The notes beneath the pieces are model-generated. The model was not told the origin of the DNA. It did not search any database and was given only the letters and a program-made list of their open reading frames with translations. Of a DNA stretch of 64,000 bases, positions 18,658 through 52,400 are shown one piece after another (the first letter of the stretch is position 1; each line of letters begins with the position of its first letter). The translations under genes were made by a program, and so were the position numbers. Source of the stretch: Blasia pusilla (Eukaryota); NCBI GenBank assembly GCA_050084515.1, contig CM114271.1, positions 1,426,001 through 1,490,000 on the forward strand, read 5' to 3'.

Positions 18658-19383
18658 TTGTTCTCTGCCGTGGGTAAGAATTGCGTACACACATACACAA
18701 TGGCAAATGTTCCCCTATTAGATCAGTACTCATATGTTGAGCATCACCGGATGGATCCCCCATGCTGCTTTTCTTGTGATGAGGGAGGTGATGTTATATT
18801 TTGTGATGGTGTTTGTGGTCATCATTTTCATTGGATTGGAGGTGGCATGCCCACCAACCCAGATAGTGGCAAGGGTAAGACGTGCATCCCTGTTGTGCTG
18901 CCTGGAAATCACAATTGGAGTGGACCTTGGGTATGTGATCTATGTGTTGATGATAGAGCCATTTGTTTCTCTTGTGGGCTGGTTGGTCGTGTTGTTGGGC
19001 ATACTGAGTTTGAGACACGACTCATCAAGTGTGCTCACCCGGATTGTTATTCCTTTTATCACCCGGGATGTGTGAAGACCCGCTTGCTTATCAGAGGACT
19101 CTCGCAGGCTCACACAATGCAAAGCCCTCTTGTTGCTCCTGATGCACTCATCTACTCACGTCACTATTGTGATGCGTGCAAGATATATCAGGCGGGTATA
19201 TATGACTTAGTGCAGTGTCGTAGATGCCCCCGTGCTTGGTGTTATGATCAAACTCCAGGAGGCAAGAGACACTTGCATAAAGGCTGTGATGTTAATGGCA
19301 TGTGGAATTTTGGTGAGTGGCGACTTGTGTATTGCCGTCGTCATATAATTCCAGAGGGCCAGTCTGTACCTACTCGGGATTAA
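18658..19383 (+). CDS. Tandem atypical PHD zinc-finger ORF resembling the EDM2/NSD PHD cluster; probably cargo of the adjacent DNA transposon
   Basis: Uninterrupted 241-codon frame: CFSCDEGGDVIFCDGVCGHHFH..WVCDLC..CFSCG..CAHPDCYSFYHPGC..HYCDAC..QCRRCPRAW..YCRRH. Confidence 0.75.
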   Translation: MFSAVGKNCVHTYTMANVPLLDQYSYVEHHRMDPPCCFSCDEGGDVIFCDGVCGHHFHWIGGGMPTNPDSGKGKTCIPVVLPGNHNWSGPWVCDLCVDDRAICFSCGLVGRVVGHTEFETRLIKCAHPDCYSFYHPGCVKTRLLIRGLSQAHTMQSPLVAPDALIYSRHYCDACKIYQAGIYDLVQCRRCPRAWCYDQTPGGKRHLHKGCDVNGMWNFGEWRLVYCRRHIIPEGQSVPTRD

Positions 19384-19671
19384 ACCTATATTCGTGTAAT
19401 ACATGCAAGAGAGACTTTAATGTCAATTGATTTAGCGGGTTTGGCCAATAGATTTTGCGATTTAGGATTGAGGATTTAGAAGAAAATATTTGCCCTGTGG
19501 TGGCTTTAAACGCAATATCTTAAATTAAGGAGGTGACATCAATGTGTATACTCCTATGGCGTCCAAAATGCTATAACCTCTCGTAAAGAATTGCTTTGGA
19601 TCTTATCTGTGGTGTTGTATTCTTTGTTGTGGTTTGTATAAGAGGTTCTGTGTGTATCCCCATAGTTTCCA

Positions 19672-22600: not shown

Positions 22601-24306
22601 ATAGGACTGATAGGAAAAATTGGGCTAGGCCTCAATGAATTGCTTCAAAGAGAGTGCAAGCTTGTTTGCAGGATATGTTTGAGAGAATGGATGTTCGCCA
22701 TGACAGAAGCCTAGGGACCCAACTATACTTGGAGGTTTATGGTAATTACATTGATATTTTCTTCTCACATAAGCATGACTTGAGGATTCGTGTAGTTTTG
22801 GCATCTAAAGTGTCGTGGTTCTTTCGACTCTGGAGACTTTGGCTGAGACATGGTGATCATTCTATGACAGGGAGTGTAGGACATGTGATAGAGAAGAACA
22901 TGATATCAGTGCAAGCTTTCCATGATATCAACATGTCTTTCCATTTTATTGTATTACTAATGTGTGCTTTCCGTGACAAGTATCCATACTTGCAAGTTCC
23001 ATTTCACCTCCTAGGATCTGATTGTTGTGAGATCTTCTTCAGCAAGGTAGGTGGAATGAGTGGCCATGAATGGAACTATGATTTTTGGTCTTTGTTGGAT
23101 AGTGCAGTGGGGTTGAATAGACTGGCTAGCTTGGAATTTGGACCAGAAGGATTGAAGATTGGCCGGTCTCATCCAAAGCAAGATCACGTGTGGGGAACTC
23201 TCCATCCGTTAGGTATAGGAGAAGATGCTCCTAATCTGTTTGACTATTCATTAATTCAGACTAATGAGATGGTAGTTCATGCCCTTAAAGAGGCTTTGGA
23301 TGAAGCAAAATCAATATTGAGCAGGTTGAGTATCTCTCCTAGGTCCTTTTTGCCTACAGGTCAGAGGCGATGGTGGTTGCATCCACAAGATGTGGAGGCA
23401 GAGACGTGGCCTGATTCTGCTATTATAAATGAGGCAGTTGCATGTGATGACTTTGAGGATTTCGTTGAACATAGACCAAAAGTAGGCCCTTGCCCACCCG
23501 AGGAGTCTAGAGTTGATGAAACAGAAATTGATAACCCAATGTAGAGGGATTTCAATAGTCTTGATGCTTGGGAAAGTGATGCACCAACCTTTGTTGAGTT
23601 TAGAGTGATTGGTGAGGACTTGGCTGAGGATGCAGATAACAATCCATCCATAGAGACATAAATATTGGGACATGAGGTAAGGCATGTATTCAGTTAAATT
23701 CTGCATGAGTGCACAGATGGAGTTCCTTGTCAAGTTGTGCCTACTGTGACATTTGAAGGCAGAATATACTCCAAGGCCACTTTGGTGAGTGATTGGGCCT
23801 GCAATCCTTTTATTTCTAAAGATAGGCTAACACGGATGTCACAGAAAACATATTACACTACAGGTAAGGTAAAAGAACCAAGTAATCTAGATTGCCCAAC
23901 TTGTTATGTTGACATTGGAAGTGATTTAGCTATTTTTTTTGAGTTTACTACACAAGTTGGACCTACTACTAGATCAAGTAAGTCAAAGAAGAGAAAACAA
24001 AAAGATTTGGATGAGAATAGAATAGACCCTACAAAAGAGTTTTGGTTAGGTCGTCTTTTGGACCGACCTGTCCCAAAAGATGGATAGATATGCAGTGTTT
24101 GTCAGATATTATGCAATTGGTATCGGCGCACAGGTAAGAGCAACACCTTGTTCACATATGATGCATGTGATGGCCAATATATTGACATTGAAATGGTAAT
24201 TTCAAATGTGAAACCAAGTCTTACATCCAGGATATATGAATTGGATAACAGTGATTTACGAGCGATCAATGATTACATCCGCAGCGTGTCGTCTTCTGCC
24301 AAGTGA
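19672..24306 (+). pseudogene. P-element/THAP9-like DDE transposase with N-terminal C2H2-like fingers and AT-hook; disrupted
   Basis: CLEC..KHLVNPKH, CRVC.., GKRGRPRK. Candidate catalytic motifs FAEDET (~21737-21754), HANDG (~22292), DQDAPHNGKK (DxxH, 22441-22470), DRKN and LGSDCCEIFFS (~23011-23043). GT intron from 21775. Several stops and frameshifts. Confidence 0.65.
21785..21913. repeat. 26-bp minisatellite, 5 copies, in the transposase intron
   Basis: GAGATTCAATACAAAAAATTATAAG(T/C) at 21785, 21811, 21837, 21863 and 21889. Confidence 0.95.
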
Positions 24307-25134: not shown

Positions 25135-28100
25135 GGCCTATGAACCACCTCAAACTCATACTCATGTAGTAATAGAGCCCGCTTGGCAAGCTTTTCCGTA
25201 AGCTTTCGGACTCCATCAACCACCTTGACAGCTGATGATCAGTGATAAGGGTGAAAGGGTTGTCGATTAAATACACGTGAAATGTGCCATGGCCCACACT
25301 ATAGCCAAGCACTCTCCCTCGTAAGAACTGTACTTTGCCTCTGCAATGTTGTTTGATCGGCTTGCGTAAGCCACAACGAACTCCCTCTCCTTGTCATCCC
25401 TCTGAGTACGCACTACTCCTAGACCCAACATGCTCCAATCCGTATGTAATTGGAATGGGCCACCCCTAACCGATCTCTATCAAATGGGTGAGGATGTCAA
25501 CTTGTCCTTGAGCTCCTGAAATGCTCGCTCATTATCATCTCCCCACAACCAAACCTGATCAAGTCTCGTCAACAAGGTCAAAGACTTTGTGATCGCACTA
25601 AAACCCTTGACATACCATCGATAGAAGTTTTCCAGTCCAAGAAATGCTTGAACTCGACTCAGATTTGTAAGGTGTGGAATCTCCGCAATAGCCTCCACCT
25701 TTGTCTGTTGAACGCCTAACCCACTCGGGTATATGGTGTGTCCCAAGTACTCAATCTGCCTGAAAGAATTTGCACTTGCCTCCGCTCCATATCAGAATAC
25801 CTGTAGGGTCGACGAAAGATAGGCGTATCACTAGCCAACTCAATCAGTATCCCGTGACCCTTCAGCGTACCCAAGTCTCTCATACTGAAGGAAAAAAACC
25901 GACATGCCCTCTCAGAAATATATGAACTTGCCATCGTTCTACTCATGTCAACATGAGACCTATCACACGCTCCCAAGTCTCCATCGTGACCTCACTCGGA
26001 GAGGACGCAACCTCCGGCTTTGGTTGCTATGTAGCAACCCTAGCCACCTCCGCAACATCCACTCCACTCTGACCTCCTACACGAGGCTCCCCATCCAAAA
26101 ATGAATATGTGCTGCTCTCGACGCCTTCGCACTCTCCGCTCGAAGGACGTCCCAAGAAGTCCATGGGTGCCTATCTCTCCTCGTCATGCCCCTAGCCAAT
26201 GCCTCTACATACCTTATAGGCAATGGTCCAACTCGTGGACGTGACAACATGGATAACACTCACATCCATCTGTGCTCAGCCATACCTAGGCTGACTATCC
26301 ATGTGAGACAGTTGAGGTCCATCGCCTGCCCCAAAACCTGTCTGTGTGATGCCTCAGTCATACCTGGCACTGCCGTAGTACCCGTAAAGAACCCCATGGC
26401 GCGCTCATGCTCATTTGCTGTAGGCTTCTCCAATGCTCAGGTCACCTCATCCCAAATCATGCCTAGCCCTCCTTGACAAAAGGCATGGGATGCTAGGAAG
26501 CTCACCAACGTAGGTAAGGCTGCCCTCAACTCCCCCATCCTATTGGCCATCGCCAAGGGTGGTCTATCATCCCGCGTCACCACCAGAGATCGACGCTTTG
26601 AGCCCAAAATAGCATCCACAATGAGATGTGGTGCTCTCTGGACTCCATTGTATGCTCGACTCAGTACCTCTGATCGTATCAGGTTCGTCCACAACAGTCG
26701 TGGACGATGGGCGCGTGATCCAACTCTCGCTGCATCTAACAACATAGCAAGTCCCAACCAGGACCTCACTTGATGCACACTCGTCATCACACGTGCTCGA
26801 GTGTCTCCCAAAAATGGCACGTTCTCCAAAATGTACGCCGAAGAACATGTCGACTCTCCTGCAAGTGTCGTACTACTCGTAGCATCTCCCAAAACATGCT
26901 TGACCTCGGATTCTGCAATCCAAAGCCTCGGTTAGCTGATGAATGACCCTGACATGGCCATGCAGCAATCATCAAATGAATGGTGCCAACTCCATCTAGA
27001 TCTTGCGCCCCCACCAAAGAGATGTCGGCGGGTAGTGTATGCTAATATCTTTGTATTGCAGATACTGGAAATAACTCAGTATACCTCTGGACCAATCTTG
27101 CTACGTAACGTAATGATATTTGCCATGCAGTCTCATCTCTTTCCACATAAAGGTACTAATGCACCCGTATGCCCGCCTGCAATACCACTGCCAATCCTGT
27201 GCTAATCCCTCCAAAGAGATCTAATACCCTAACACCCTCCTCTGGACACTACCACACAACGGGTGTGGTATCCAGTGGGGTCAATGTCTCCACTCTAGGG
27301 GCCCAATCGCCACCTGACTCTCCTTGCTCCGGGATAAAAGCATGACTCCACGCCTGCCTAACGAGGTTGTCGGCACTCCTCTGTAGCTCTCGAGTTGAAT
27401 CCCACAATGGTGAAGAGGTCTCGCCAACATGGGAAGAGACACACGCCATGGCCTCTCTCTCCGTAGGACTATCCGCTACTAGAACATCCTCCGGATGTGC
27501 GTTCCCCTCCAACAACTCTCCCTGTGAAGGTTGCCAACGTGAAGGTTGCTAACACTACCTGTGAAGGTTGCCAACGTGGTCATAAACTCGTCTCGTGATC
27601 GACCTCCTCATCCTACTAATTGCATGGGTAATTGACTCATCCGGCCGTCACCTGACCGCCACCTTGGCAGATAAGCAACGGTCTCCTCCCATAAGTCAAG
27701 GATGAATCCTAGGGGATATAACACTATACTCCCTACCAACACATCATATGACCCAGCTGGTATCGTAATCGCACGTGTGCGTACCATAGCACTATCCATC
27801 GCATGCTCTAGCTGGACTCTAACAACTATCTCCTGTCGAGTCATATACTTTTTGGATGACATGCCCCCAATCGAGAGGTCTGTATCTGGAAGGGACAAGG
27901 CTCAATGTCGGGCTTCTCTAACCCCAACGCCAAACACGCCGGCTTCCCTAACATCAAGGGTTGTGCTCCCGAATCAAGAAGGACGCGCTGCAGGTGGTAT
28001 ACTGTCCCCGTCAGACTAACCAAGCGAAATACTCCAACTCGGTTATCTAGTAAAACTACTCCAGGTGTCACCACTGCTCGCTCTATGGCCGGTCGAGCTG

Positions 28101-31425: not shown

Positions 31426-34400
31426 ATCGCCCCCCTAGTTGGTGGTTAGGTCCCTCTAACTCTAGATAGCCATCTATCCCTACCTACCACGACATACATC
31501 TCTAGGATGCTAAGAGCAGAAAGGCCGGGTGCTCATGTGGCCCCATCGTTGATCGCCTTCATGTCTTCCATGTCATAAAAAAATCGGAATCGAAACCTAC
31601 CTAGTATCTCCTCTATGTACATGTGGGACACATCCATCGTCCCTGAGGAACCCTAGTGAGAGGTGGCGTCAGACATGCCATATGCCAACCTCTCGAACAT
31701 CCATCACAGACTAGCATCGTGGCCGTACCACGAGCAGAACCACACAGCATACAACGCAAGCCTGCAAAAACTACTGTTGAGCTTGGATCTACTGTTCCAT
31801 CAATGTTAGGAAGGTGACATGGCACACAATTACGCACATGGTCCTTCCACACTATACCATCGCGTCCCTCCAGCAAGAGAACACCACATGGCAAAATGTC
31901 ACACACTTTCAAGAGAGTGCGCCCTGCAGTCACATCCAACGTCATCGGTGCCTTCAGCTACAAGTAGACATAATCTCCCTGATGAAACCTCTGGATAGTT
32001 GGTTGATAACCACCACCCCAAATAGTCGCATACCTCAACGTATCCCGATGTTGCGCAATCGCCAAGTTCTCGAACGACATGGGCATCACTCTCCAAAACA
32101 ACTCAGCCCTCTGAGAACATCCTTGCATCCATACATCTGGGTCATCAAGGTCCAGCACCTCAACAGCATCTCGACGAATGGCCGTAGGTAAATCTGGCTC
32201 TCGGCCATAAAGTAGCAAGTACAGTGAAAAAGACGCTAAGGATTCCTGCCTGCTAGATCTTTATTCCATCGCCAACCACGGCAACTAGAGGTCCCAATCT
32301 CCTAGGTGACCTCTCTATAAGCCATACTTGCATAAACTCCTCTTCACCGTCTACACAACTCTCTCCGCTAATCCATCCGCCTCGGGATGATCTCGCGAAG
32401 TCGTGCGGTGTTCGATCATCAACTAATCACACAAGGTCTGGAACTCATCGCGTAACTCGGTACCCTGGTCTATCAACACCTCAGCCGATGCGCCATAATG
32501 ACTCAAAACTCTCTCAAGTAAGGCATAAGCTACTCCCTCACTCGCTTTGTCAAGCAATGCAACCAACTCGATCCACTTTGAGAAGTGCTCGACCATCACC
32601 AACACATAACGACTTTCACACTCTGTCAAAGGCAAAGGTCCTGCAAAATCCAAACTCCATCTTTACCCTAAGCCCATGATTGGTAATGGATGCAACTATG
32701 GAGTCGGAGCATTGAACGATGCTTGGACCTGATCGCACACCATGCACCTGGCAACAAATTTTTGAACGTCAGTCTGCATGCCTCGCCACCATACTAAATC
32801 TGGAGCAAGTTGTACGTCCGCATCACCCCAAATTGACCCAACTCCTCGTGGGCATGTTGCACTAGTCATGCTCTCTTCAAAGGATTTGGCACTACGCATA
32901 CTCTACCATCCTCCCAAATCCTCAAAACATGTGTCCCCTCCCAACGGAACTGTCTGGCCCGCTGTAGCATCCGATCCCGCTCTCTAGCACCCATGGTGCT
33001 TGCAATGCTGCCAGTACGAAGGTACTCCAAGACTACTCCATCATCGTGAATATCTCGGCCACGTGTCGTCTCCTCACTGGCCTCGGGATCCAAGGACTCT
33101 CCACTAGACCTCGCCATCGAAGTCTCCACACTCTGGCTCTCCATAGCCAACATGCCTAAATAGGCTGACGCGTGCCAAGCTTCCCTGTAAATCTTGTCGG
33201 ACTCCATCAACCACTTCAATGGTTGATGATCAGTGATGATGGTAAAGGGGCTGCCGAATAAGTAACACTTGAAATGCACGACAACCCACACTACAGCCAA
33301 ACACTCACCCTCATATGAGTTGAACTTTGCCTCTGCAACATTGTTCGAGCGACTAGCGTAAGCCACCATGAACTCTCTACCCTCATCATCATGTTGGTTG
33401 AGCACCGCTCTAAGCCCCAACATGCTCCAATCTGTGTGCAAGTGGAAAGGACGCCCCTTGATCTGTCTCCTCAAGATGGACACGGACGTCAACCTATTTA
33501 TGCTCGCTCCTACTCATCCCCCCAGTGCCACTTATGCTCAACCTTGGTCAGTAAGGTTACCGACTTCGCAATCGAACTAAATCACTTGACGTACCACCGA
33601 TAGAAGTTTGCCAATCCCATGAATGCGAGAATATGGCTCACATGTGTAGGGCATGGAATGTGTGAGATAGCCTCTACCTTTGTCTGCTAAACACCAAGGC
33701 CCCCTGGGTATATCATATGACCCAAGTTCCCAATCTGGTCGTAGAAGAACTTGCACTTGCCTGGATGTAGCGTCAGCCCATGTAATTGCAATCGTCAAAA
33801 CACCTCCTCTAGATGTCGCTCATGCTTCTCAACCATGGCGCTAAAGACTATATATATAACACCTAGCAAAATCTAGACCAGCCAAGATCCCATCCATGAT
33901 CCTCTGAAACTCAGCCGGGGCGTTCTTAAACCCAAATGGTAAGAACCGCCACTGGTACAAACAATCCTTCCCGTGAGGATCGATGCCCCAAAATGCCGTC
34001 TTCTGCATGTCCTCCAATTAATCTAATAGGCAACTGATGGTATCCGGCTCGCAAATCCAATGAACTGAAGACCTTTTCCTGACCAATCGCATCAAAGATC
34101 TCCTCAGGGATGGGCATGGCATACTTATTGGACTTCGTCTCCCGATTGATAGGTCGGTAATCCCCACACATCCTTCTATCCGTCCAGTTGCCATGCACAT
34201 CCTCCTTGGCGGGCATGACAATGGCAGATGCATACTCCCCATATGACATCTCCACTAGTCCTGCTCTGACCAAGTCCTGTCTCCTACTCTGAATCAGAGT
34301 CCTCTCCATATCAGTGTACCTGTAGGATCATCGGAAGATCGACGTATCACTCGACAACTCAATGCGGATCCCCGGTCCCTTCAGCATACCCAAATCCTCC

Positions 34401-34465: not shown

Positions 34466-36879
34466 GGGGGCTGGTATTCTGGCAGGAGAGAGTAAGAGAG
34501 GAGAGGAAGAGAGGAAGAGAGGAGAGTCTCTCTTCAAAAAAAAGGGCCAAATCCGCCTCCTCTCTTCAAAACTTTATGACATATTTGAAATTTTTGTTTG
34601 CTTTCAAATCCATGAAAACTTTAGAAGAGAGTAGGTAGTGGTCCACATTTGGTCCTAAAAAAACCTCCTTTTTCCTTGGGGCGAAAAAAAAATAGACATC
34701 ATAAGACCACTACAAACATTTTTCATCTCCTCATCTCGGTCAACAAAAAGCAATGCCCTTGGTATTTTTGTTGGAGGACCACCGGATGCCAACCCTAAGC
34801 ATCTACTCCAAGGCATCTTGCTGACATTTCTACCTCATCTACTTCGAACCTGCCTAACTAAAGCCTCTTGAGCAACATTGATGGCATAGGCTCGACCTGT
34901 CTCTTGGACATGCTTGAAGGTGAGATCTACCTCTATATTCTTCCCATGCTTGCTTCTTCTCAATCTGGTTCGAGCCCCGCCCTCAGTTCACACCTCCACT
35001 TAGCTCCACCTAGACAAATCTTCCAGAAATCACTCCTTGGATCCTCTCAACTCCATAGATCTCTCCCTTGGATTCTCAAGCTTTATGGCCTTCAAATGAG
35101 GTCCTCTAGGCTTCCATGAGGAATATTCTAGCCCACAAGAGTCCAAGCATTTGAGCTCAGCCTCCATTGACCTCTTCTTAGCCCCTTATTCTTCATTTCT
35201 TGGCCCTAACAATCAGATCCACCCCCTTGGTTCAAACCCTCCTCTACAACAGCAATCAAGCACTCTATCTCCTTCATTGGATACCCTGGAGACTCCCTAG
35301 TGCCTACACCATCTCCCTTGTCTCCTCTAGGCTTGAGGTCAATGGAGTGACTTGGCTGCATTATCACCTTGTACAATCTTCTTGACTTGTTCTTGGACAG
35401 CGTGCTGCTGGGCCTTTCTCTTGCACCACCTCCACAAGTCCAAAAAACATATTCCAGAAAACTTTTACAAAAACCATTATGGGTTCAAAAAATCTCGTCC
35501 TTTATTACCTCCGAAGGAACCTCGAAAATGTACATTGAACCTAGTCTATGATTTCTTCAGCCTCGTCATCTACAAATTTACTCCTAACTCTCCTCGGTGG
35601 CATGATACCAAAGGAATGTCCTGGGATTCAAGTGGCTCCTCGGCGGTTGTAGACGGGGATCGAAAATGTTGGCGATTTGAGAGCCTTGGCCCCCCCTAGG
35701 TACACCATAACGGTCCCATGTAACTGTCTCGAGTCCCACCGCCTTCCTCGGTATACCTTGTACGCTCGCAATGTGACACCCATCCAAGTATCAATATCGC
35801 TCCGTCCCGGTAATACCACTATGGCAACCGCAGGTAGAAGGAATCCAACACGTCGAGAGAAGAAAAAAGCCCTCGCTGCCTTTACGAGTTGAGGGGAAGG
35901 TGCCAAGGAAGAAGCCCGCCAGGATCGCCTCATCCGAAAGGGTCCGATCAGGCAACCTGTCGGAATCGACATGGTTTCTGGAGGTGGTAAAAGGGTCCGA
36001 TGGTCAAAAGCGAAAAGTTGAGGAGAAATCCGACGGTTGCGTGGTCATAAAGTGAAAATTGCAAGCGGGAGAAATCCGACGGGTTGCAAAGTAGAAGACC
36101 GTGGAGTACATAGATGATCACATTCGAAAAGACAAAATGATCACCAAACATTTACAAGCACCACCATCGATTGAAAAAATCTTTACGCTTTATATCATCC
36201 GAAAAAAGCTCGGAATCAGACATTTGATCTATTCTATGAAATCTTTTGCCAAATTATCAAAAACTCCCTACTCCAAAGCAGCTGCAGTCAAGTTGGGTCG
36301 TTGAGTTCTTTGAACTCACTCGTCATCGCCCGAGAGCTCTTGCAAAATCACTTTCGGCCTTGCCCCCGATTTTGGGAATCGTTGGAAGTGACGATGGACT
36401 CACTACCAAGGGTGGCTCGAACCGAGCTCTCGGCCCGGTGGAGAGTTGTACGCCCAACGAGCCTTTCAGATTCTGCCTTTGCCTCCTTGCAAAGGTCAAG
36501 CGATTCTGCTTTCCTCGAGCGGAGAATGTTCTGCCACTCTGCCAGCGCCTCGATACTCGCCCTGAAAGGCCCACTAAGTCGAACACCAAGTCACCCGGCC
36601 TTGAGCAGAGCTCGATGAGCGTTGCATCGGTCGGGCGACTTTTCCCTTCCTCCCGAAGCGGGTATGTCTTGCATGTAAATTCCGAGGGGAATTGTACAAA
36701 CTATCTAAGCTGTACCCATCGGGCATGGATCCACAGGATCCTGGATCTTGAACACTGGAAATTGTGCTCGGGCCAAATGAAGCAAGACACGTAGGAGTGG
36801 TCCATCGTAAATCAAGACAAAACAATGTCGAAACTAAAGAAGTCGCTTGAGAAGATTTTCAATAATCGACTTTGGATCA

Positions 36880-37250
36880 ACTTTGTCGGAGTCCGACGGG
36901 TTGTTTTGTCCCGGACCCACCCGTTGGAACCCGGACGGGTTGCGATTCTTTTGGGTTTTCCAAGTTGATTTTGGTTTTTTTCGGATGCAACCCGTCGGAA
37001 GCGGACGGGTTCCGCCTAGACCAGCCCATGCTCTTTGAGAGAAACCCGTCGATAGCAACCCGTCGCTATTAGGCGGGTTGCATCCAAAACAAAATCAATC
37101 GCAACCCGGAACCCGACGGGTTGCGGTACACCGCATGTGTTTTCCCCGTATGTGGGAAAGATGCAACCCGCCGGAAACCGACGGGTTGCTCACCGAGCAT
37201 GGGCTGCTCTAAGCCGACAACCCGTCGCCTTCCGCGGGTTGCTCACGAAA
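36880..37250. repeat. Palindrome cluster 1 (about 7 copies, intronic)
   Basis: Variants of GCAACCCGTCGGA-N-TCCGACGGGTTGC at ~36885, 36918, 36987, 37055, 37101, 37163 and 37218. Confidence 0.9.
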
Positions 37251-39558
37251 AAAACCAGGCATCGACTCTCATTCTACACATCATTATAAGATAATTGAAA
37301 TTATTGTATAGAATATAGCCTTACCGAATCGACTCGTTGCGGATCGAGTGGGTACTCGCTTTTTATGATCCATGATTGTGCCGTCCTCCACTTTAGCGAC
37401 CTCTTGACGCACTAGAGGTTGAAGAGCTCGTCCTCGCTCCCTCGATCCAACACCAAGAAGCAGCCCTGTCACTTAGATAGGCGTCGCAAAGGAGAACAAA
37501 AGTGCAATCGGTCATAAGTGAGCGGCAGATTCCACTCAGGTACCTCGTCCGCCGGATTTTCGCCCCAAAGTCGCAACCCCGAGGGCAGATCGGCGATCAA
37601 GAGATCCACCGCAACCTCTTCCACCACTCCATTCACCGTCCAGGCAGCGTGCCCGTTTCATTGGAGCTTCCTTCCCAGCGTTGTCACTTTTTCGATAGCA
37701 GTTGTCGACGCTTGAGAACTGAAGTTGTTCAGCTCATCCAGTAAAGAGGTGAACTGAAGGAGGACGCTTGTCCGGGTCATTGTTTGTCTGTGTCTTCCCA
37801 AGGATGATGGGCTGTATTCTCCTTGGGACAACCCGAGCACCTCTCGCTTCCGCTTCTCTCTAGTCTGGGGACGGCTTGTCGGGGTTTCGATGACCTCGGA
37901 TTCTGGTGGCGTTTTCTTGGCCGAGGACCTGGTCCGACCCTCTCTTCCCGCTCGTCCGGATGATTCCGCCTCTGGCCTCTCATCTTCAGGCTCTCTTTGG
38001 GAAGTCTCGGCCTCTGAATTTTTCCCTCCCCTCGCCTTGCCTTTGAGACCCGCTGTGGATTTGTCTTTGGCTGTCCGGACCTTGGAAGCCAACTCAGTTG
38101 TCTCGTGGGCCTGCTCTTCTGCATCTCCTCCGAAGAAGTCTTCAGGCTGGACAAAATTGGGGATGTCGTCTTGTCCTGAGGCCACTGCATCATGAAGCAC
38201 TCGTAAGTCCTTATCCGCGATGTCTTCAGGGTCGTTGAAGTCGAGCCAAATGGGGCAATTCTCCACCTCCCAATCCGACATGTGCTGACCCATCTCCACG
38301 TCATTCATGGAGAATGTCTCTGCATCCGGCGGCGAAGCCCACAATTTCAAGGCTACCGGCAATTTTCCCCATGTACCTGCGTTCTTACACTGGACGAGGT
38401 ACCTGAATACCATCCGTTGGGCAGATTTTAGTCAAACATTATCGGCCGTCTGCTCCTGTAGATCTCGCTTCTTCTTCGCTTGATCCCGTTTGTTACCCTC
38501 TACTTCTATGTCAAGCTCTGCCTGAGGGAGGACGCAAACCTTGAACATGGTCTTGAATCCAGGGTTCTTGGTTGGCTTGTCCCGGATGTCGTCGAGCCAA
38601 ATCTTGTAATCTCCAGAACTTTCAAGGTTTGCTTCCGGCGGAATGGGCTCTAATCTTCGAGCTCGCTTGCGGACCCGTCAAAGACGGACTTCCCGATTAC
38701 CGCGGGCGTCCCGAAAGGACCATTGGCGTAGCCAATGCGAGATCACTGGATCGGACACACCTGGAGGATGGTGTGCCGCCCTCTTCCGGGCCCTCGAGCC
38801 CGAGATCGATTTTCATCCATCGTATCCTCTGAACTTCGCTAATCCCGGATAACGCAAAATGATGCACGCGATCCAGCGACACTTTCTCCCCAATCCGACC
38901 ATGCGGATCTTCATCCCTCTTCGCGACGCTTGATAATCGCCTTGAGCTCCTTGTAGAACTCCGGACCAAGTTCGGGGTTGAGAATCTTGATGTATCGCTG
39001 CATCTTGCTCGCCGTGTATTTTGTTGCAACAGATCTGGCGGCTTGGATGAATTTGGCGCTCAGACGCAGATACCTTCTCCCCGCTCGGCTCGGTCGGCGC
39101 TTTTCTTGCGGCCTGTATCTTCGACCAACAAAGGATGGTGAATGCCGGTAAGCATCTTGAGAAATAAACTTGTTTGCCCAAGTTTTCTTCTTAATTTGAG
39201 CACCGGAGGGAATGTTACCCACCATCTGATTGACAAGGGCATCTTGCAAAGGGTGCTCAAATTAAGAAGAAAACAAACCTCAAGATACTCATCCTTTGTT
39301 GGTCGAAGATGCGTGAAGAAAAGCACCTTCCTCACGGAGGGAGAAGGTATCTGCGTGATCCTGGATCCAATGGTGGGTAACATTCCCAAGATCCGATACA
39401 ATTCTCAACCCCGAACTTGGTCCAGTTCCAAACTCAACGTCAGAAGAGGGATGAAATTACATTGGGTTCCGCATCCCGTTATCCGGATTAGCGGTTCAGA
39501 GGTCGATCATGAAAATCGCTTCGAGGGTCGGATTCTAAGAGGGCAACCATCCTAAATG

Positions 39559-39950
39559 ATGCAACCGTGAGTCCGCTACGGGTTGCATTCAGATTTGCTA
39601 ATGCAAGGTAAGCAACTCGCCGGACTCGACGGGTTGCCGGCTCGCACGCTTTTTCGGATGTTTTTAAGATTGCAACTCATCGGACTCCGACGATTTGTAT
39701 GATTGAACATATATTTAACTAGTTGTTGGCCCAAAGCAACCCGTCGGACTCCGACGGTTTGCTTTTGGGCCAAAACTAGTTAAATCTATGTTCCATCAAA
39801 CAAGTCGTCGGAGTCCGAAAGTGTCAATCTTAAAAGACATTCGAAACCGTCGATCTAGCAACCCGTCGGAGTCCGAAGAGTTGCTTTCTGCCTAAACAAA
39901 CCTAACCCATTCATCAATCGAGCAACTCGTCGGAGTCCGACGAGTTGCAA
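39559..39950. repeat. Palindrome cluster 2 (7 copies, ~60-bp period, intronic)
   Basis: Copies at ~39561, 39612, 39672, 39736, 39800, 39858 and 39922. Confidence 0.92.
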
Positions 39951-41417
39951 AAGTGTTAAAGATACTTACGTGTTCATGGCATGCATTGCCATCTCCACCG
40001 TCGCCATGTGATGAGGGTATGGGTGAAGGACCCGCCTTGCACGCAGAAATGTGCCTCAATGAGTTGGGGCTCCTCCATAAACTTGGTCCACGCCATGAAC
40101 TTGTGATTTCCATCCCGGATGAAGAAATGCAGATTCCTCATCCGGCTGAATTCCGTGCCCTCAACTTGCTCTTCAAGTCCTGGTCTCGCATCCTCCGAAT
40201 GTGTCGAGATTTTCCAAGTCCTCCTCAGTAACGAGCTTGGGTTCCATGCTCGTCGTGAAGGCTGAACATAGAAGGGAGGAAAATTGTCCACGAGGATCTT
40301 TGTCGCCGCCGATTGTTTTAGCTTTGCGATGTCCTCGTCGGATCAGTATTTGCGGACGTATTCCATTGTCCTTAATGGCGAGTGGAATCCTCGGGCGTTG
40401 TGGCCCTCCATGAGTGCCATCCGCTTTACCACCTGTCGAACCGGGACAAGAGGAATAAGCTACACTGAAATCCCAATGAATTGCAATTCACATAATTAAA
40501 AAACCGAACCTCTCTTACCCGCTTGAAAATGGAGTCGGTTTCTTGACCAGCTAACTTGTATGCGAGACAGGGGTGGCAAATCGATCGGGAACTCGTCGAT
40601 CCGATAGAGGTCGATGTCCTCCGCCGGGCTTGGAGTCGAATGACCTCTCTCCGGCTTCTTCCGCCATGTCCACCATCTCCACACGTTGGCGGTCCTCATG
40701 ACCTCGTCGTCATCAAGTTGAACAGTGTTGTTTCCACTATGTTGATTGTGTCCCGGACCGTGGGGACATTTCCGCATCTCAACACTTGTGGTTGGACGGG
40801 CTGGGCTATCGTCAATGGCTATCTCTTTTTCCCGCCTCGCTTTAGCCAATTCCGCCCTCCTCAACGACGCGTCCAGACGCTTCTTTTCTCTCTTTTCGTC
40901 AGCGATCCTTTTCTTCAAGGCCTGCGACGTCTCGGCCTCTTCGTTCTGTTTATCTAGCGCCGCTTGATTAAGTCTCGCCAGAAGCACTTGGTTGTGCATC
41001 TCCGCTTCCCTTTCCCGCTCCTCGATTTCCTGCTGCCTAATTTCATTCGCCAAACGAGGCGCAGGAGAAGCTGACGCAGGAGTTATAATGGACTTGGGAG
41101 TGAAGCTCCCGGACTTGTTGGCTTGTGTTTTTTTCCTCATCATTTTTGCCGGAAATGCCTCCGCCTATGTCCACGACGAATCCCTTGATCAGTCGCCTTG
41201 CTGATGTCGAGATGGGAGCTCGTCTCGCCTTGGTGGTTAGCTCGAATCGTCCCGATATCGCTCGGTCAAACCGTCTCGCTCTCGTTCCGTCCTATCGACT
41301 CGCAATGTGTCGCCGTGTGAAATGCTCCTTCGTATCTGATCAGTTGCTGCGCGGGAGAGTGAGGAGTGAGGAATGAAGATCGTGAAATGAGAAACCGGAA
41401 ATGAGCGACTTCTGCCC

Positions 41418-41425
41418 TATTTATA
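41418..41425 (-). promoter_or_regulatory. Candidate TATA box of the ParB/MTase-like gene
   Basis: TATAAATA on the minus strand, ~275 bp upstream of the ATG at 41143. Confidence 0.5.
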
Positions 41426-41509
41426 CTTTTCTAGCCGTTGGGCTGACCGTTGGGTCCCGTCGTCCTTTCGACGGCGACGTGCCGAATCTTACGGAAGTCC
41501 GGACGTGAA

Positions 41510-42185
41510 AAATCGCAACCCGTCGGAGTCCGACAAGTTGCGCGGCTCCGCCATCCTGGGTACGTCGCCACGTGCGCGAGCAACCCGTCGGAGCCCGACG
41601 GGTTGAGCGCCTCCGTCGTCTTCGGAAAAGAACGCGAGGTACCCGCGCAACCCGTCGGAGACCGACATGTTGCGTGCCTCCGCCAACGGCGTCGCCGCCG
41701 TCGCTTGAGCACCCGTCGGAGACCGACGGGTTGAGCGCCTCCGTCGTCTTCGGAAAACAACGCGAGGTACCCGCGCAAGCCGTCGGAGACCGACATGTTG
41801 CGCGCCTCCGCCGTGTTTGGGACGGGAACGGGACGTATTTTGGGCAATCCGTCGGAGACTGTTGGGTTGCATGCTTCCCTTATCAAGGGTTAGGAACGAT
41901 GGCTTCCCGTGCAAGTCGTCGGAGTCTGGCTGGCTGCACCACAAGGCGACGCCCTTGCGCAACCCGTTGGACGGCGACGGGTTGCACGCCTCGCCGGGAA
42001 CAGACGGTTTGCACGCCTCCGGCATCTTCGAGCAAGAAGGAGCGGTATCCCAGCAAGTCGTCGGAGAGCGACGGGTTGCTCGCTTCGACAATGTTTAGCA
42101 GAAGCGTGCAACCCGTCCGATGCCGACGGGTTTGCAAGCCGTAAGCCGGGTAATTTCGAGTTACCAAGACTCCGACGGGTTCCAA
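41510..42185. repeat. Palindrome cluster 3 (about 12 copies) in the divergent promoter, including a ~129-bp tandem duplication
   Basis: Copies at ~41515, 41580, 41647, 41709, 41775, 41844, 41911, 41959, 41986, 42053, 42108 and 42168. Confidence 0.92.
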
Positions 42186-42544: not shown

Positions 42545-45500
42545 GTGGAAGGTACGGAAGACATAATAGGTGAGACGATCCAGCCTGTGACCTCGCACCG
42601 TAAAGTATGGAATCTCCTACCATGCCGCAAATGGTCAATACAGAGTTTATGGCCTGCCCTTGAATTCGTCTGTTTCCCAAGTAGCGGTCTAGAATTTCCT
42701 AGTGCTCCGAGCTCACGTTTGCAACTCCAAGCTCTGCAGATCCGGCCGACTCCAACCGACGCTCAGAACAATGTTGTTCTTCCCTGAAGAGATTACGGAT
42801 GTTATCAACCTCGGCGGATCGTCGGACACCAATCGGGCCTGTGTCCGCCTACGTTCCTCTTGCGAGTATCGGCAATAGTTTGCTTTCGTCTCGCCCTTGA
42901 AAATGTTCAAGCATATTCTTGTCGACGAGTTGCCGCCCACGCACGATGGTAATCGCATTTTTGAGTTGCCTCCACTTGCCGCTCTGCTCAAAAGAAGGAT
43001 GGAGGGCGCTGAAGGGTATGGGAGAAAGTCGATTGTCATCGATGGTGCAGCTTCAACGGACGGTGCTTCCATCCGAGATGGTCCTTGGATTGTCTCCCCC
43101 GCCGCCAATGCGTGGGAGCCTTGGAGTGTAGAAGTCCAACATGCCCGTATCTAGAGCGCAACGGGCGAGTCAATACGCCGTAATTCCCCCAAGAATGCAG
43201 AAACTCCATACGAGGTGGGTGCCACAATACCGCCGGGAGGCCATCGATGTCCTCATTGTCGCATCGCCTTCGCGTTGGAGCGTGTCCTGCATACATATTT
43301 TCATTGTCCATGACTTGGGCTCCACGCCGGTGAATACAAGGTCGGGCAGTTCATGTTGGCTCCCACACTCATCCCTGTGACCGATGCAATTCAAAGACAC
43401 ATCAAGGAGGATGTGGCAAAGAAAGTAGCCGAGGTCTTCAGAAACTCTCCGGGTTCAAAGCCCGGGGTGATCAAGCTCACAACGGCATCACAAATTTGTG
43501 AACAATTTCTTGGAATTCCTGGACAGGGCGAGATCACGGCGGTTGAGGAGAAACAACTCTGGGAAAATCTCGCATTTCTCGCTGATCATGAATGCTTCAG
43601 GAATTTGCTGCGTGAGATACGAGTTCTGGATGGAAAGACGGCCGAAATGGATGCCATCGCCAGAATCAAGGCCAACTCCAGGTTTCCATTCATTCAGAGA
43701 TGGTAGTTCATGGGCCAAGGAGGCGAGGGATCCAGGGCCTATGTCTTCAAAATGTCAACCACAGGTCCGTCGAGTGGCCTCGATCTTATAGATCGAATGA
43801 GGGAAGGGGAAGATCTTTACGGGAGTTGGGTCAGCTTTGATATTTGCTACAGAGTGCTGAACGGATGGTTGACAATGGGTGCTCACGTTTATGACCATGT
43901 GGAGAAGGGACTCAAAACTATATTTGTGTGTGAAGTAAAGGCAAAAGATGTTGGCAGTTTGAAGATGTGCTGGTTACTCTTATTGGAGGTGGTGAAGGAA
44001 AACAAAAGGCCACCTCCGGAAATTTATGGGTTCATGGCGGACAATGCACAACCTGGGTGGATTGCTATCCGGGAAGTGTTCTGGGGTGGAGAGGTTCAAC
44101 TTGAGAGGGAAAGGTCGGATGCTTTCCATTGGCAACAGTCTGTGACCCGGTACACCAAATCTTGCCATCAAGGAGAATAAGAGGACGGAGCATGTCACTC
44201 TACTCCAACGCTGCAAGGACAAAAAACCTTGAAGCGAGGCCATGGACCGCCAGAAGAACTTCATGGGTGGTGGAGGAAGCATGCGATTGAGGGGAAGTAC
44301 AAAGAGTTGTGCTCTTGGTTGAGTTGGTGGACTGTACGTATGAGACAATGGGGAAACTTCATGCGGTAGGTGAGTTCACTATTTTGTCTTGTCAAGCTCA
44401 CGCTGAGAATTGTTTGTAAAGTTGTAGCTCAGGGTGAGAAGTGTGGGAATTATATGGATTTCAAACCCAAGAGACCAAGCAAAGTTTGATGCGACGGGTT
44501 GCCCGAGGTTGCCCGAAACCGACGGGTTGCCGAGTGTGCAACCCGACGGAAATTGACGGGTTGCATCCACATGTTTGGTGTCATCTCGGTGTGCAACCAT
44601 TCGGGACCCAACGGGTCATAGAGTCGTTCATGGGATGCTCGCCTTGCAACCCATCGGGTTCTAAGGAGTTGCGTGAGGTGGGTTTAAGGTTACAACACGC
44701 CGGGACCGACGGGTCGAGAGTCGTTCATGGGATGCTCGGGCCGCAACCCGCCTGGTTCCGGCAGTGGCTTATTTCTTTGACTCTTGGGTTATTTTCGTTC
44801 CCTTCTAACATTGCCGCTGCAGTGGATTGAACGTTCATGAAAATGCCCTCTGCCCCAACACAAGTGGAGCAGAAAGTGTTCATTCCTCTTGGAGGTCGTC
44901 ACAAGCATGCCAACGAATTTCACTTGTGGAGGCATGCCAACAAGACCAGGCAAGAGCAATGCTGATCTGCCTGCAAAGATCCCATATCTTTCTCACAAAA
45001 GGCATAACAAAAAAAAAAAAAAAGGGCCGTCGATCTACGAGCTCTATGTTAGGGCGGCTGTGAGATCTGGTGATGAAAAATTGTATGTCGAAGCCTTCAA
45101 CCGGTGCGTAGCTGGAACTCCACTCGAGCAAGACGTACACATAGGTGGGGATATTCGTGGGCGGGTTTCAAGACGTCCCATACAGATGGTGGTAGAGCAA
45201 TTAAGACTTATCGAACGAGACTCGTGGAGACCAGATAAGTATCTTGACTTCAGGCAGGTGAAGAGGCAGATCGAGGAACAAATCCGGTGATTGATTTGGA
45301 TGAGGAAATTACACCGCCCAGGTATTCGGGGACCCCGGACCCGTCCCAAATCCGTGATGGAGTTACTTCTCCAAAATCAGTGAATGTTTTATTTCAAAAG
45401 CCCTCCGTTGCTGGAAGTTCGCAACATCCCGCATCCACCGGGTGGTTCAACAATATGGGATTCGGTAATGGAGGTGGATTGCAACCTAAAACGGTGGCAT

Positions 45501-46340
45501 ATATCTTGGAGCAACCTAGGACGTGGACCCACTGCGGGCAGGCAGGATCTGATGGCATTAGGAGAGCATGCGGCACTTTCCTAAATAAGAATCTGCACAA
45601 GGATCGACGACCACCGCTCGGGTTTTGGGGACTCAAAACCTTTGATCGTTTCACGAGGACCGGGGATCAATTGAAGTACTTCTTCTGCCCAAATGAATCT
45701 TGCCCTTTCCGGAAGTCTTATCCGGCTGCCATTGGAGGTCCCGGGAATACCCCCACGATTTGGCCCATCGCCGCAGGCACAAACTGCACTCAAGACGAAG
45801 TGGACAATCTTACAAGTGCCGGTTTCGCACTCAGAGACGGGGAAGTTCGAGCATGTTCAGCATTTAGAGACCTTTGCATTTCGTATTCAACCCAAGATTG
45901 ATGTCAACATGTACCCGGAGAAGGTGGATGATCTCAATCCATTATTTTTTTTTGAGTCTAGAAATGGGGTGAAGAGAAACAGAATGTGTAGGCCAACGGT
46001 GGAGAGAGCAAAACAAATTGCAACAGCTCGGGAGGCAAAAATGGAGATCATCGCCACGAAAGATGTCCTGAGTGGCAATGGAATAGGAAGGATGTATTGG
46101 GTCACGAACAACACTGTAAATTCAAGTGTCACAGGGGTGTATGTGGTGCACATCTGTTGCTTTCCCACATGTTCATGTGATGACTTTGTCCAAAGAGAGA
46201 CAAGTGGCAAAAGGTATTTCCCTTGTAAGCACATGTACTATGTGTTCTTTGGTAGTTTTAAGAGAGTCGAGGTAGGAGTAGGAATCCACCAACCAGTGTC
46301 CCTCAAAGAAGTTCAAAGTATTTTAAACAAACCACTTTGA
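42545..46340 (+). pseudogene. MULE DDE transposase with C-terminal SWIM finger; frameshifted
   Basis: SWVSFDICYRV, GFMADNAQPGW, DAFHWQQSV, WLSWW, TSGAESVHSSW and SWIM CSCDDF..PCKHMYYVF. Intron 44370 (GTGAGT) to 44822 (TGCAG). Start position approximate. Confidence 0.85.
44490..44770. repeat. Palindrome cluster 4 (about 6-7 degenerate copies) in the transposase intron
   Basis: CGACGGGTTGC, GCAACCCGACGGAAATTGACGGGTTGC and related variants between donor 44370 and acceptor 44822. Confidence 0.8.
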
Positions 46341-49499: not shown

Positions 49500-52400
49500 A
49501 GGACGCGGAAGGATAGTATTTTTTCACTCTAGCCCCATTGGTCCTGGTAGGTAATTCTTCCCCTTCCATATCAACAAGTTGGAGACTTCCATTCTCCTAT
49601 ATATTAAGAACTTGATATGGGCCCATCCACCTGGTATGTAATTTTCCCGGAAACTTGGTAAACCTGTTATCATACAGTAATACCCAATCCTTAGCCTGAA
49701 TATTTGTATGTTTTAACTTCTTGTCATAAGCTTTCTTTCTCTTGGCTTTTTGAAGATAAGTTTCCTTCAGGGCATCATCTGGTCTTCCTCTACCTGTTCC
49801 GATTGTTGCAGGCAATGCAATTCACTCTCTTCTACCCCGGATCTTCTTTGATTCATAACACGGTAAGTGGGCAGGTCAAACTCAATAGGAATCACTGAGT
49901 CCATACCATAAGTCAGGTAAAAAGGGGTTCGCCTTGTTGTAATCTTTTCTGCTGTGCAGTAAGCCCATAAAATTGATGCCAACTTGACATCCCAATCAGT
50001 CTTATGTGCAGACACAATCTTGGTAAGTATCTTACACAGCAATCCATTGGCTCTCTCTGTAAGACCATTGGCTTTTGGATTATAGGGTGTAGTTGGGCGA
50101 TGTTTAATGAAGTAAAAACTAGTCACAGCTTCAATTGTAGAATTAAGAAAGTGTGTGCCTCTGTCACTAACCAGCTCCAGGGGACAACCAAACCGAGTGA
50201 TAATGTTGTCAAAAGAAAATGGGTTGTTACCTATGCATCATTAGTCTTGAGGGCAATAGCTTCAACCCACTTGGTTGCATAATCTGTAGCGACAAGAATA
50301 TATCGGTTCCTTTACGCTTTGTGACGGGTTGGATGGGGCCTACAAAGTCAATGCCCCACTTTTCAAAAGGGGCTAATGGAAGGATGGGTATCAAGGGCCA
50401 CCTCCCTGACATTAAAGGCTTTCCCTGCCTTTGGCAAGGATCACAACTTCTAATGAATAAATGTACATCCTTATGCATGGTCAGCCACCAATATCCCGCA
50501 TCGCGAATTTTGGCCATTGTTGTGTGAACAGCATAATGTCCACCAGCATTCCCCTGATGGAGAGCGCTGATGACTCTCAAAATCTCCCTTTTCTCTAAAT
50601 ATCTCTTCAACTTCTGATCAGGAGTTAGCTTATATAATGTATTCTGAAGCAAGGTATAGGGTCTTGCTTTGTGGACAAAAACAGCTCTCTGCTCTACAGA
50701 CAGCTTGGCAGGAATGATTCCACGCTACAAGTATTGGACTATATCAAAGTATAACGAATCCGCTCCTTCAATGTGGAACACGGCTTCATTTGGGAAAGAA
50801 TCAGAAATCTCAGCTAAAGGTCCCACTCCTGCAATCTCGAAAGGTAATCAGCATTGGCATGGGACTTACCCGGCTTCACTTGTACTTCAAATGAAAATTC
50901 TTGGAGAAGGAGTACCCATCTTGCTATGCGCTTGGATAGATCAGCCTGATTAAATAAATATTTCAAGGCATTATGATCCGTATGGAAGACAGTATCATAC
51001 CCTAGCAAGTAATGGCGAAAATTTTTGCAAGCATATACTATGCCTAAGGCTTTCCTTTCTGTTGTTGAGTAATTCTTCTCCGCAGGATTAAGCTTCCTGC
51101 TCGCGTAGTAGATGGGATGGTCCATCCCTTGAGAATCTTTCTATCCAAGGACAAGGCCTATGCAAAACTTGGAAACGTCAACATCCATATGGAAGGATTT
51201 GTTCCAATCTGGAGGTTGTAACACAGGTGCATGCATGAGCTTGTCCTTGAGGGCTTGGAATGCCACCTGTCTTTCTTCAGTCCACAAGTACTCAGCATCC
51301 TTCCTCAATAACTGAGTAAGACTGGCGGCAGTTCGAGAGTAGTCCTTAACAAAACGCCGGTAGTACCCCACACAGCCAAGGAATCCTCGTAATTCCTTCA
51401 GATTTGTTGGGATTTCCATAGCCAATATAACGGAAATTTTGTCATAATCTACCTTGATACCTTGTTTGGAAATCTTGTGGCCCAATAAAATACCTTCTAT
51501 CATCGCTAAGAAACATTTTTGTGCTTGTAGGGACAAGCGTGCCCATCCGCATCGTTCAAAGGTTTTTCGGAGATGTTCAATGTGATCCTCTGTTCGTCCA
51601 TATACACAGAAGTCATCGATGAACATTTCCATATACTCTCTTAGGAAGTCTTTAAATATGATCATCATTGTTTGTTGAAAAGTGGCTAGTGCATTGCATA
51701 GTCCAAAAGGCATCCGATTGAATGCAAATGTCCCCCAATCGGTTGTAAAGGTGGTCTTGCTCTAGTCCTCCTTCCTAATGTGAATCTGATTATAACCTGC
51801 ATATCCATCTAAGAAACATAATCTCTCACTGCCTGCTACTTTATCCAGAATCATATCAGTAAAAGGCAAAGGATGATGGTCCTTTCTGGTAGCAGCATTG
51901 AGCTTCCTATAATCTTGGCACAACCGGATCCTATATTCTCCATTGAGACCTGGGGGTTTAGGAGCAACTACTATTGGGGACACCCACTCACTAGACAGGA
52001 CAGGATATATGAAGCCTGCCTCCAGGAGTTTATCCAGCTCCTTCTTCACTAAGGAAGAAGATTTGGGATTTAACCTATACTGTCTCTACCTAACTGGCAC
52101 AGCTCCTTCTAATAAATCGATTCGATGTTCTGCTATTTCAATCGGAATCCCTTTCAAATCTTTGTGAGATTTAGCAAAAACATCTTCAAATTCAGTCAAG
52201 AGTTCAGCATACAGCTGCCTCTCCTGATTCTGTATGGTTACACTCATATTAAACTTTTTACCTCCCTTGATCACTAAGGGAGAATATTGTTCTAATCTAA
52301 ACATCCGCTCAGACATACTCTTTGTCTCTTCAAAGTAGGATCGGCTGTTTCCCAATCCCACTTCTATATTCTTACTATTCAGTGGTTGCTACTTCAGGTG

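Follow-up and report, generated by a model that had tools for sequence, protein, structure and literature searches.

A decayed liverwort repeat copy with a methyltransferase-like, probably non-catalytic protein domain

A two-exon gene of a liverwort protein family

The subject of this analysis is a gene-like region at 36.3-39.0 kb on the minus strand of a 64,000-nt stretch of Blasia pusilla DNA (the window, to which all coordinates refer), a stretch that overall is repeat-rich eukaryotic DNA with open reading frames (ORFs) of retrotransposons. The region belongs to a repeat whose gene has two exons and encodes a member of a protein family that is restricted to liverworts and had no name before (Table 1). 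We regard it as probable that the region is a decayed copy of this repeat and that the family has a C-terminal domain derived from PF01555-type methyltransferases, likely a non-catalytic one.

The main body of exon 1 is a single frame, which tblastn with Riccia proteins follows from 38911 to ~37346 when stops are read through. The N-terminal homology block lies in another frame than the main body, so a frameshift separates it (38956) from 38911. Exon 1 encodes, in this order, a conserved region at the N-terminus (..AQRMVFRY.., ..WEVENCPIWLDF..), a low-complexity linker of charged residues and the N-terminal half of a methyltransferase-like domain. Exon 2, read in the frame from 36805, comprises 161 codons that are open except for a TAG at 36703-36701, and ends with a TGA at 36325-36323. 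The strings VDLLIADLPSG (37609-37577) and VPEWN (37543-37529), from which an initial annotation of this DNA had recognised a methyltransferase-like domain, were found on the minus strand as claimed, as were KSRPTD (36643-36626) and TLIELCSRPGDLVFDL, the latter inside PGDLVFDLVGLSG (36598-36560). The same annotation had also given a string LFSFAxAYLSDxG, which is absent as written. A second frame reads ..FVLLCDAYLSDRAAS.., and the frame switch proposed after the DLPS block was mistaken: the homology to Riccia stays in the first frame, through a TGA, where ..RRLSK*QGCFLVLDRGS.. of the window pairs with ..LLDDNGHVIILHSGS.. of Riccia. Because the Riccia relatives align to the first frame, we consider the second to be non-coding. 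The last string of the annotation, GAS..SGRxIL, requires more frame switches and could not be confirmed.

The family was recovered when 1.84 billion representative proteins were searched exhaustively by phmmer with a read-through of 37469-38431 (321 residues, with one internal TGA written as X); four of them matched at E ≤ 0.001. Riccia sorocarpa contributes three, all annotated as hypothetical proteins (E 1.4e-10, 1.9e-5 and 3.0e-5), namely KAL3687003.1, KAL3676456.1 and KAL3694591.1, with lengths of 488, 512 and 562 aa (lengths not matched to the order of the accessions); P0002 and P0005 below denote Riccia proteins. The fourth, P0003, is a protein of 7220 aa that matches the charged linker in 13 stretches; this match seems compositional, and P0003 was left out of the alignment. 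The window aligns with the Riccia proteins over their full length, with 24 invariant columns and tblastn E-values of 1.4e-13 to 7.6e-11. The shared N-terminal blocks are ..RRAKR..FRY.. and W-E-x-x-N-C/S-P; they are followed by the charged linker and by a shared C-terminal block, D-x-x-x-x-D-x-P-x ... V-P-x-W-N ... L-L-D-D-x-G-x-x-I-I. The tetrapeptide in this block is DLPS in the window and DLPT, DIPT and DMPI in Riccia, with the D, the second P and VP-W-N invariant in 4/4 members. Since all four carry D-[L/I/M]-P-[S/T/I] and then the invariant VP-W-N, DLPS is a family trait and not a product of decay. The non-canonical motif reported at the outset thus holds for the family, whose four aligned members retain just the D and the second P of the catalytic tetrapeptide.

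A word-indexed protein search scored none of 1857 candidates with the read-through protein, and none of 26 when exon 2 residues 1-60 were compared with longer proteins; with the family alignment as query it returned P0002 itself only. Relatives were absent from two metagenome scans, and a literature search, which had paper supplements outside its scope, found no description of this Riccia/Blasia protein family.

To locate the exons, reads of three RNA runs and contigs of DNA run X1 were mapped to 36000-39000. RNA depth is low over both exons, with nearly all reads in one orientation, and is zero in all three RNA runs in the five bins of 36808-37312. In run X20, three RNA reads stop matching at 36806 and go on into a diverged form of the sequence whose end is at 37325, and since these sister-copy reads join 37325 to 36806, the intron is 37324-36807. 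Its donor in the window reads GGTAAGG, with the exon ending after the first G. The initial annotation was therefore right in placing an intron between the two blocks, and wrong in its acceptor, as the real join lies ~160 bases upstream of the second block. The mapped RNA reads number 45, 51 and 65 in the three runs; 1, 0 and 6 of these are at least 99% alike to the window, and 40, 40 and 52 are 90-95% alike. Because most reads are merely 90-95% alike, the RNA stems from sister copies. These sister copies are transcribed and their intron is spliced.

From DNA run X1, 14,735 pieces of contigs fit the 3 kb mapped here (4000 at 99% or above, 5384 at 95-99% and 5351 at 90-95%), which makes the region a high-copy repeat; self-blastn found no second copy inside the 64-kb window. 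The region is probably a copy of a transposable element, and the window holds no reverse transcriptase or recombinase linked to the gene.

The copy in the window is decayed. Over its 529 codons, the exon 1 frame is interrupted by five TGA and one TAG. These six stops are why the ORF track missed the region: it is indeed absent from the track, as had been noticed, and what was missed is a dead repeat copy rather than an overlooked gene. The TGA at 37660-37658 is CGA in sister copies, with A>G at 37660 in 3/3, 4/4 and 4/4 reads of the three RNA runs and in 393 of a depth of 406 in DNA run X1; it is a private stop of this copy. The end of exon 1 is without two single bases that are present in an expressed sister copy, and the frame changes there for want of them. 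In this copy, the frame crossing the join runs for 40 codons to a stop when the count starts 7 codons ahead of it, and the two exons do not splice in an open frame, a result that goes against the initial annotation. With the two extra bases of the sister copy, exon 1 ends, on hand translation, in ..PLRSATSQI, which matches the ..PMRSATKQF found towards the end of P0002. The exon 1 of this sister copy then runs into the 36805 frame that holds the motif I-like string of exon 2 (three reads, translated by hand). With six stops, frameshifts, the AG acceptor lost and a repeat inserted in its intron, the copy in the window yields no protein. That the locus might be a working gene in this genome is scarcely conceivable: low RNA depth over both exons is what such a gene would give, whereas the stops, the AC at the acceptor and the frameshifts speak against it, and the RNA comes from other copies, with only 1/45, 0/51 and 6/65 reads at 99% or above.

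Among the places in 36000-39000 where sister copies vary (DNA run X1), transitions are commonest, with 9 A>G, 5 C>T, 5 G>A and 4 T>C. This transition excess, together with five of six in-frame stops being TGA, would fit decay via deamination of methylated CpG.

Table 1 Features of the gene-like region, from the 5' to the 3' end of the gene. Riccia, Riccia sorocarpa.
Feature	Position	Strand	Basis or remark
N-terminal homology block (..ILNPELGPEF..)	38956..39009	-	tblastn of Riccia P0002 and P0005 against the window
Exon 1 main body, single frame	37325..38911	-	tblastn, translation, family alignment
In-frame TGA	38815-38813, 38680-38678, 38434-38432, 37660-37658, 37471-37469	-	translation
Motif IV-like strand/loop VDLLIADLPSG	37577..37609	-	translation; DLPS at 37591-37580, where DPPY/SPPY is expected
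VPEWN, family-specific invariant V-P-x-W-N	37529..37543	-	invariant columns V409, P410, W412, N413 in the family alignment
In-frame TAG	37414-37412	-	translation
Exon 1 end	37326..37352	-	loose-end RNA consensus at 36806, compared by eye with the window
Intron	36807..37324	-	donor GT 37324-37323; AC, not AG, at 36808-36807
Palindrome-rich insert, like a miniature inverted-repeat transposable element	36972..37257		within the intron; 32-nt inverted ends
Exon 2	36323..36806	-	RNA depth in bins 36303-36807; transcribed in sister copies
Motif X / motif I-like stretch KSRPTD..TLIELCSRPGDLVFDLVGLSG	36560..36643	-	counterpart of HPTQKP..L..I..S..GD.VLDPF.GSG of PF01555

Resemblance to PF01555-type methyltransferases

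VDLLIADLPSG pairs with ..VDLIfADPPYN.. of methyltransferase profiles. We characterized this likeness by profile-profile alignment, using a beta-class profile built from 80 YhdJ/CcrM-type loci plus YhdJ, and a second, broader one that combines 29 Bacillota PF01555 domains with 13 others. The C-terminal columns of the family aligned with both PF01555-type profiles in hhalign (P 6.2e-5 over 90 columns, and 8.9e-5 with the broader profile). The matched parts are motif IV, the following helix and strand, and an I-I-W-x-K-like strand. Omitting the window row left a Riccia-only profile with P of 1.5e-4 and 8e-5. Column shuffles reached the observed score in 0/70 trials (best shuffle 25.9 for an observed 38.0, and 20.0 for an observed 35.5), and reversed sequences scored 14.4 and 12.3. 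This match is specific. A profile of bacterial MT-A70 sequences (5 sequences) gave no match, its P of 0.045 falling on an unrelated stretch, and a phage Dam PF05869 profile (3 sequences) gave none either (P 0.47 and 0.67); as a control, the PF01555 and MT-A70 profiles detect each other with P 9e-8.

The two exons were then joined as one query, consisting of exon 1 (37657-37325) and exon 2 (36805-36323) with stops written as X. This joint query gave a single colinear hhalign alignment, running from ..DLLIADLPSG.. to ..GDLVFDLVGLSG. (query 17-198 against profile 50-256), over 172 columns with P 1.4e-5 and a probability of 80%, and with a spacing near that of real enzymes. The beta-class order suggested earlier for this locus, with motif IV before motif I, is thereby borne out in one continuous alignment. 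Exon 2 in the 36805 frame aligned by itself to profile columns 179-256 with P 8.7e-4, as against P ~0.65 for its other two frames; exon 1 joined to the other exon 2 frames, or to shuffled exon 2, scored ~27 against 44.0, and 0/40 exon 2 shuffles reached the observed value in any test. The putative motif I of the window reads F-D-L-V-G-L-S-G, to be compared with D-P-F-x-G-S-G-T-T, and is known from one decayed copy only.

A feature search of the language-model Atlas served only to give leads. Exon 2 residues 1-52 drew 30 named-cluster hits, every one of them PF01555, the best scoring 0.90. The C-terminus of P0005 repeatedly drew methyltransferase families, PF01555 among them, with none passing the threshold of the tool; the structure rows, all with template modelling (TM) scores under 0.52, did not pass it either.

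It could be argued that the family has just the half-domain on the motif IV side and that the motif I-like string of exon 2 matches by accident, in sequence that is not translated. All three Riccia gene models do end at the exon 1 end, and the join-crossing frame of this copy stops after its 40 codons. A model of the C-terminal half, run over 252 window blocks, also placed exon 2 level with the best random block: exon 2 was 2nd with one profile (18.9 against 19.0), and 1st and 3rd with the other (22.1 and 21.3 against 21.3). Against this stand the P-value of the string's own frame alone, the absence of any equal among the 40 shuffles, the colinear joint alignment with enzyme-like spacing and the uniform PF01555 assignment of the Atlas hits. 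On hand translation, the exon 1 of the expressed sister copy, moreover, enters exactly the frame of the motif I-like string. Finally, the P0002 C-terminus (..KQFKVTKT) may be a read-through of an intron at the same position, a conjecture from the protein alone, and to our knowledge no half of this fold stands alone. We consider the half-domain unlikely, and continue with the reading that the domain spans both exons.

A second objection is that the resemblance reflects chance or convergence and that the C-terminal domain is unrelated to methyltransferases. The motifs of this copy are selected evidence, because the locus was picked for looking like a methyltransferase, and several searches gave little to set beside them. 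The exon 1 piece found only ribosomal eS26 among PDB sequences, with E 0.14 or worse, and the best PDB match of the exon 2 piece was motif I of a precorrin methylase with E 0.29. In a tblastn search of the window with YhdJ, the top high-scoring pair is this locus, yet with an E-value of 1.1. A frameshift-tolerant chain score put this locus first among 86 blocks with each of three sets of penalties, by small margins (26.0 against 22.2, and 20.4 against 20.0 twice), with spurious segments included in the trace. By these scores, the resemblance in this copy alone is no more than the chance find of a motif hunter. Pfam, PDB sequence and plain hidden Markov model (HMM) searches were all negative, and the fold prediction for P0002 is unusable; each of these would be expected if the likeness were accidental. 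What decides for us is the Riccia-only profile, which the initial annotation had not seen and which aligns to motif IV and the next strands with P 8e-5 to 1.5e-4, together with shuffles that remain far below the observed scores and a match specific to PF01555-type profiles. An accidental resemblance therefore seems very improbable, and a common origin with PF01555-type enzymes is preferred.

Several results nevertheless weigh against a PF01555-derived domain, and we collect them here. No Pfam methyltransferase matched at E ≤ 10 in six frame pieces of the window or in the three Riccia proteins, none of which reached the gathering score of PF01555. The family profile found nothing among PDB sequences at E ≤ 10. 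Of the 2646 stop-to-stop pieces that make up the window, a methyltransferase HMM placed the one from exon 1 4th (E 6) and the one from exon 2 21st, and a frameshift-aware Viterbi alignment with true HMM gap costs extended no further than one motif. Past GLSG, the exon 2 frame ceases to resemble motifs II and III. The hhalign probabilities are 55-80% and the family alignment has 4 rows. An AlphaFold2 model of P0002, built from a 4-row alignment, had a mean predicted local distance difference test (pLDDT) score of 36.8 and a predicted TM score (pTM) of 0.22, too poor to establish a fold. The Riccia gene models (3/3) end where exon 1 ends, so that the C-terminal half is known from this decayed copy alone. 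Variants among the copies show no third-position excess, with counts by codon position of 7, 8 and 4 in exon 2 and of 5, 5 and 5 in exon 1. The reading of the domain as non-catalytic, for its part, is drawn from motif loss only.

A putative non-catalytic module and its known counterparts

Taken together, the minus strand of the window at 36.3-39.0 kb holds a decayed copy of a repeat that is present in high copy number and is probably a transposable element. The encoded protein, ~500 aa in Riccia, consists of a conserved N-terminal region, a charged linker and a methyltransferase-like domain. This domain probably descends from, or shares ancestry with, the beta-class (PF01555-type) N6-adenine/N4-cytosine DNA methyltransferases, exon 1 supplying what would be motif IV and the following strands, and exon 2 the presumed motif X and motif I region. 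Rather than as enzymes, the intact proteins would more likely act as a pseudo-enzyme module that binds DNA or bases and serves the element.

The intact proteins most likely do not transfer methyl groups, as judged from their motifs: in 4/4 members the tetrapeptide has lost its first proline and the aromatic residue at its fourth position. A catalytic (D/S/N)-P-P-(Y/F/W) was absent from the window and the three Riccia proteins. In the bdelloid N4CMT, replacing the S and Y of SPPY by A (SPPY to APPA) is described as abolishing the addition of N4-methylcytosine (4mC) and so killing activity (PMC8885841). The alternative, that intact members are active amino-methyltransferases with an unorthodox D-x-P-[S/T/I] active site, could draw on the invariance of the D and second P in 4/4 members and on the transcription of the family. 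A fourth position that is never aromatic (0/4), the behaviour of the N4CMT mutant and a motif I-like loop that reads VGLSG, not F-x-G-S-G, leave it a quite unlikely one. With methyl transfer presumed lost, a binding role is the economical guess for these apparently non-catalytic proteins.

The family shares with bacterial PF01555 enzymes (E. coli YhdJ, CcrM-like and Bacillota members) the order of motif IV before motif I and a similar spacing, and the alignment takes in the ..PGD.V.D..G.SG block as well as the hydrophobic strand that leads into the catalytic loop and the helix and strand that follow. It differs from them in the want of a Pfam match, in having D-[L/I/M]-P-[S/T/I] for (D/S)PPY, and in the added invariant VP-W-N. 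Its domain, moreover, stands behind a eukaryotic N-terminal region of ~370 aa, is split by an intron and lies on a high-copy repeat. METTL14 (EPPL) is a catalytically dead methyltransferase-fold partner of the MT-A70 group that acts on RNA and is encoded by a host gene. It likewise combines a degenerate tetrapeptide on a methyltransferase fold with binding in place of catalysis. The family is distinguished from it by the lack of a match to the MT-A70 (PF05063) profile, a test made with bacterial members only.

Three eukaryotic systems come closer in their phylogenetic setting or carrier. In the preprint on Marchantia polymorpha, MpDN4MT1a/b are described as a two-copy host gene of late spermiogenesis that keeps TSPPY, with reported 4mC (bioRxiv 10.1101/2021.02.12.428880). 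They too have a bacterial-type beta-class methyltransferase domain in a liverwort, whereas the present family has lost PPY and is repeat-borne, a distinction drawn from the published description and not from sequence. The bdelloid rotifer N4CMT, according to its published description, is active, keeps SPPY, is single-copy with alleles and carries a chromodomain (PMC8885841). Like the present family, it is described as a PF01555-type domain in a eukaryote, with introns and fused to a eukaryotic module; its SPPY, activity, single-copy state and chromodomain are features not seen in the family. The DAM domains of DIRS and long terminal repeat (LTR) elements (DAM-LTR) are reported to keep Asn-Pro-Pro plus an aromatic residue, within elements that encode a reverse transcriptase or a tyrosine recombinase (bioRxiv 10.64898/2026.05.21.726589). 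They are likewise prokaryote-like amino-methyltransferase domains on eukaryotic repeats, and in that preprint's account activity is undemonstrated there too. The present family differs in its degenerate motif and in having no reverse transcriptase or recombinase linked to it in the window; the DAM comparison was made with the phage Dam PF05869 profile, from which the Pfam model of the DAM-LTR authors may differ. Judged by motif, architecture and carrier, the family differs from all of the systems compared. The gene family is new, and the copy in the window is dead.

If the proposed origin is correct, liverworts would have a second PF01555-like lineage, one that is high-copy and has a degenerate catalytic motif. 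Bacterial-type amino-methyltransferase domains are rare in eukaryotes, and the two PF01555 cases studied so far, bdelloid N4CMT and Marchantia DN4MT1, each began a new chapter on 4mC. The family would raise the question of whether the liverwort 4mC enzyme was derived from a repeat-borne gene or was its seed, and a further one, of whether dead methyltransferase folds serve transposable elements as DNA-binding or anti-silencing modules. It also provides a testable domain hypothesis for three Riccia sorocarpa 'hypothetical proteins' that are blank in Pfam. The locus in the window is a fossil, and its value is that of a pointer to the family. A more far-reaching scenario, which we regard as a long shot, is that a liverwort transposable element family has a domesticated PF01555 protein, disabled in catalysis, which binds the CG-rich GCAACCCGTCGG-N4-CCGACGGGTTGC palindromes of the element as a shield or decoy against host methylation including 4mC, and that its lineage is the source or an offshoot of DN4MT1.

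Palindromes and neighbouring elements

The insert within the intron holds three copies of a GCAACCCGTCGG-N4-CCGACGGGTTGC-type motif (self-blastn 80% over 82 nt), and its DNA depth is 124-631 as against thousands in the flanks. Palindromes of this type, 26-28 nt long, occur 19 times in 35951-42132, on either side of the gene and in its intron. They form clusters at 35951-36085, 36986-37187, 39671-39946 and 41514-42132, the last of which is a tandem array with periods of 67 and 128. Upstream of the gene, between two of these clusters, lies a lysine- and glutamate-rich ORF of 222 aa (40499-41164, minus strand) with no Pfam family.

On the other side of the gene, an LTR retrotransposon fragment occupies 31616-33513 on the minus strand, with an RNase H (32869-33513, E 1.6e-27), an integrase core (32426-32662, E 9.8e-9) and, downstream of the integrase, a PHD finger (31616-31957, E 8.5e-12). 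We rejected the idea that the gene is part of this neighbouring LTR element, as no reverse transcriptase lies between the RNase H and integrase (32.4-33.5 kb, same strand) and the gene; these two domains belong to a separate truncated element. A C5-methyltransferase-like ORF suspected at 26437-26931 was likewise dropped, having no Pfam support.

Further candidate elements lie at a greater distance. On the plus strand, 18658-23544 contains a run of four long ORFs (241, 335, 187 and 301 aa), of which the first has NSD-type PHD fingers (E 3.6e-7) and the other three have no Pfam family; these may be the gene of a large DNA transposon. Three ORFs of 157-221 aa follow at 43707-46340, also on the plus strand, and the last of them has a C-x-C...C-x-H pattern and a weak match to the SWIM zinc finger, below the cut-off (E 0.14), a possible sign of a remnant Mutator-like transposase. 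On the minus strand at 49767-55719, ORFs resemble, by eye in the ORF list, the integrase, reverse transcriptase, protease and gag of another LTR retrotransposon.

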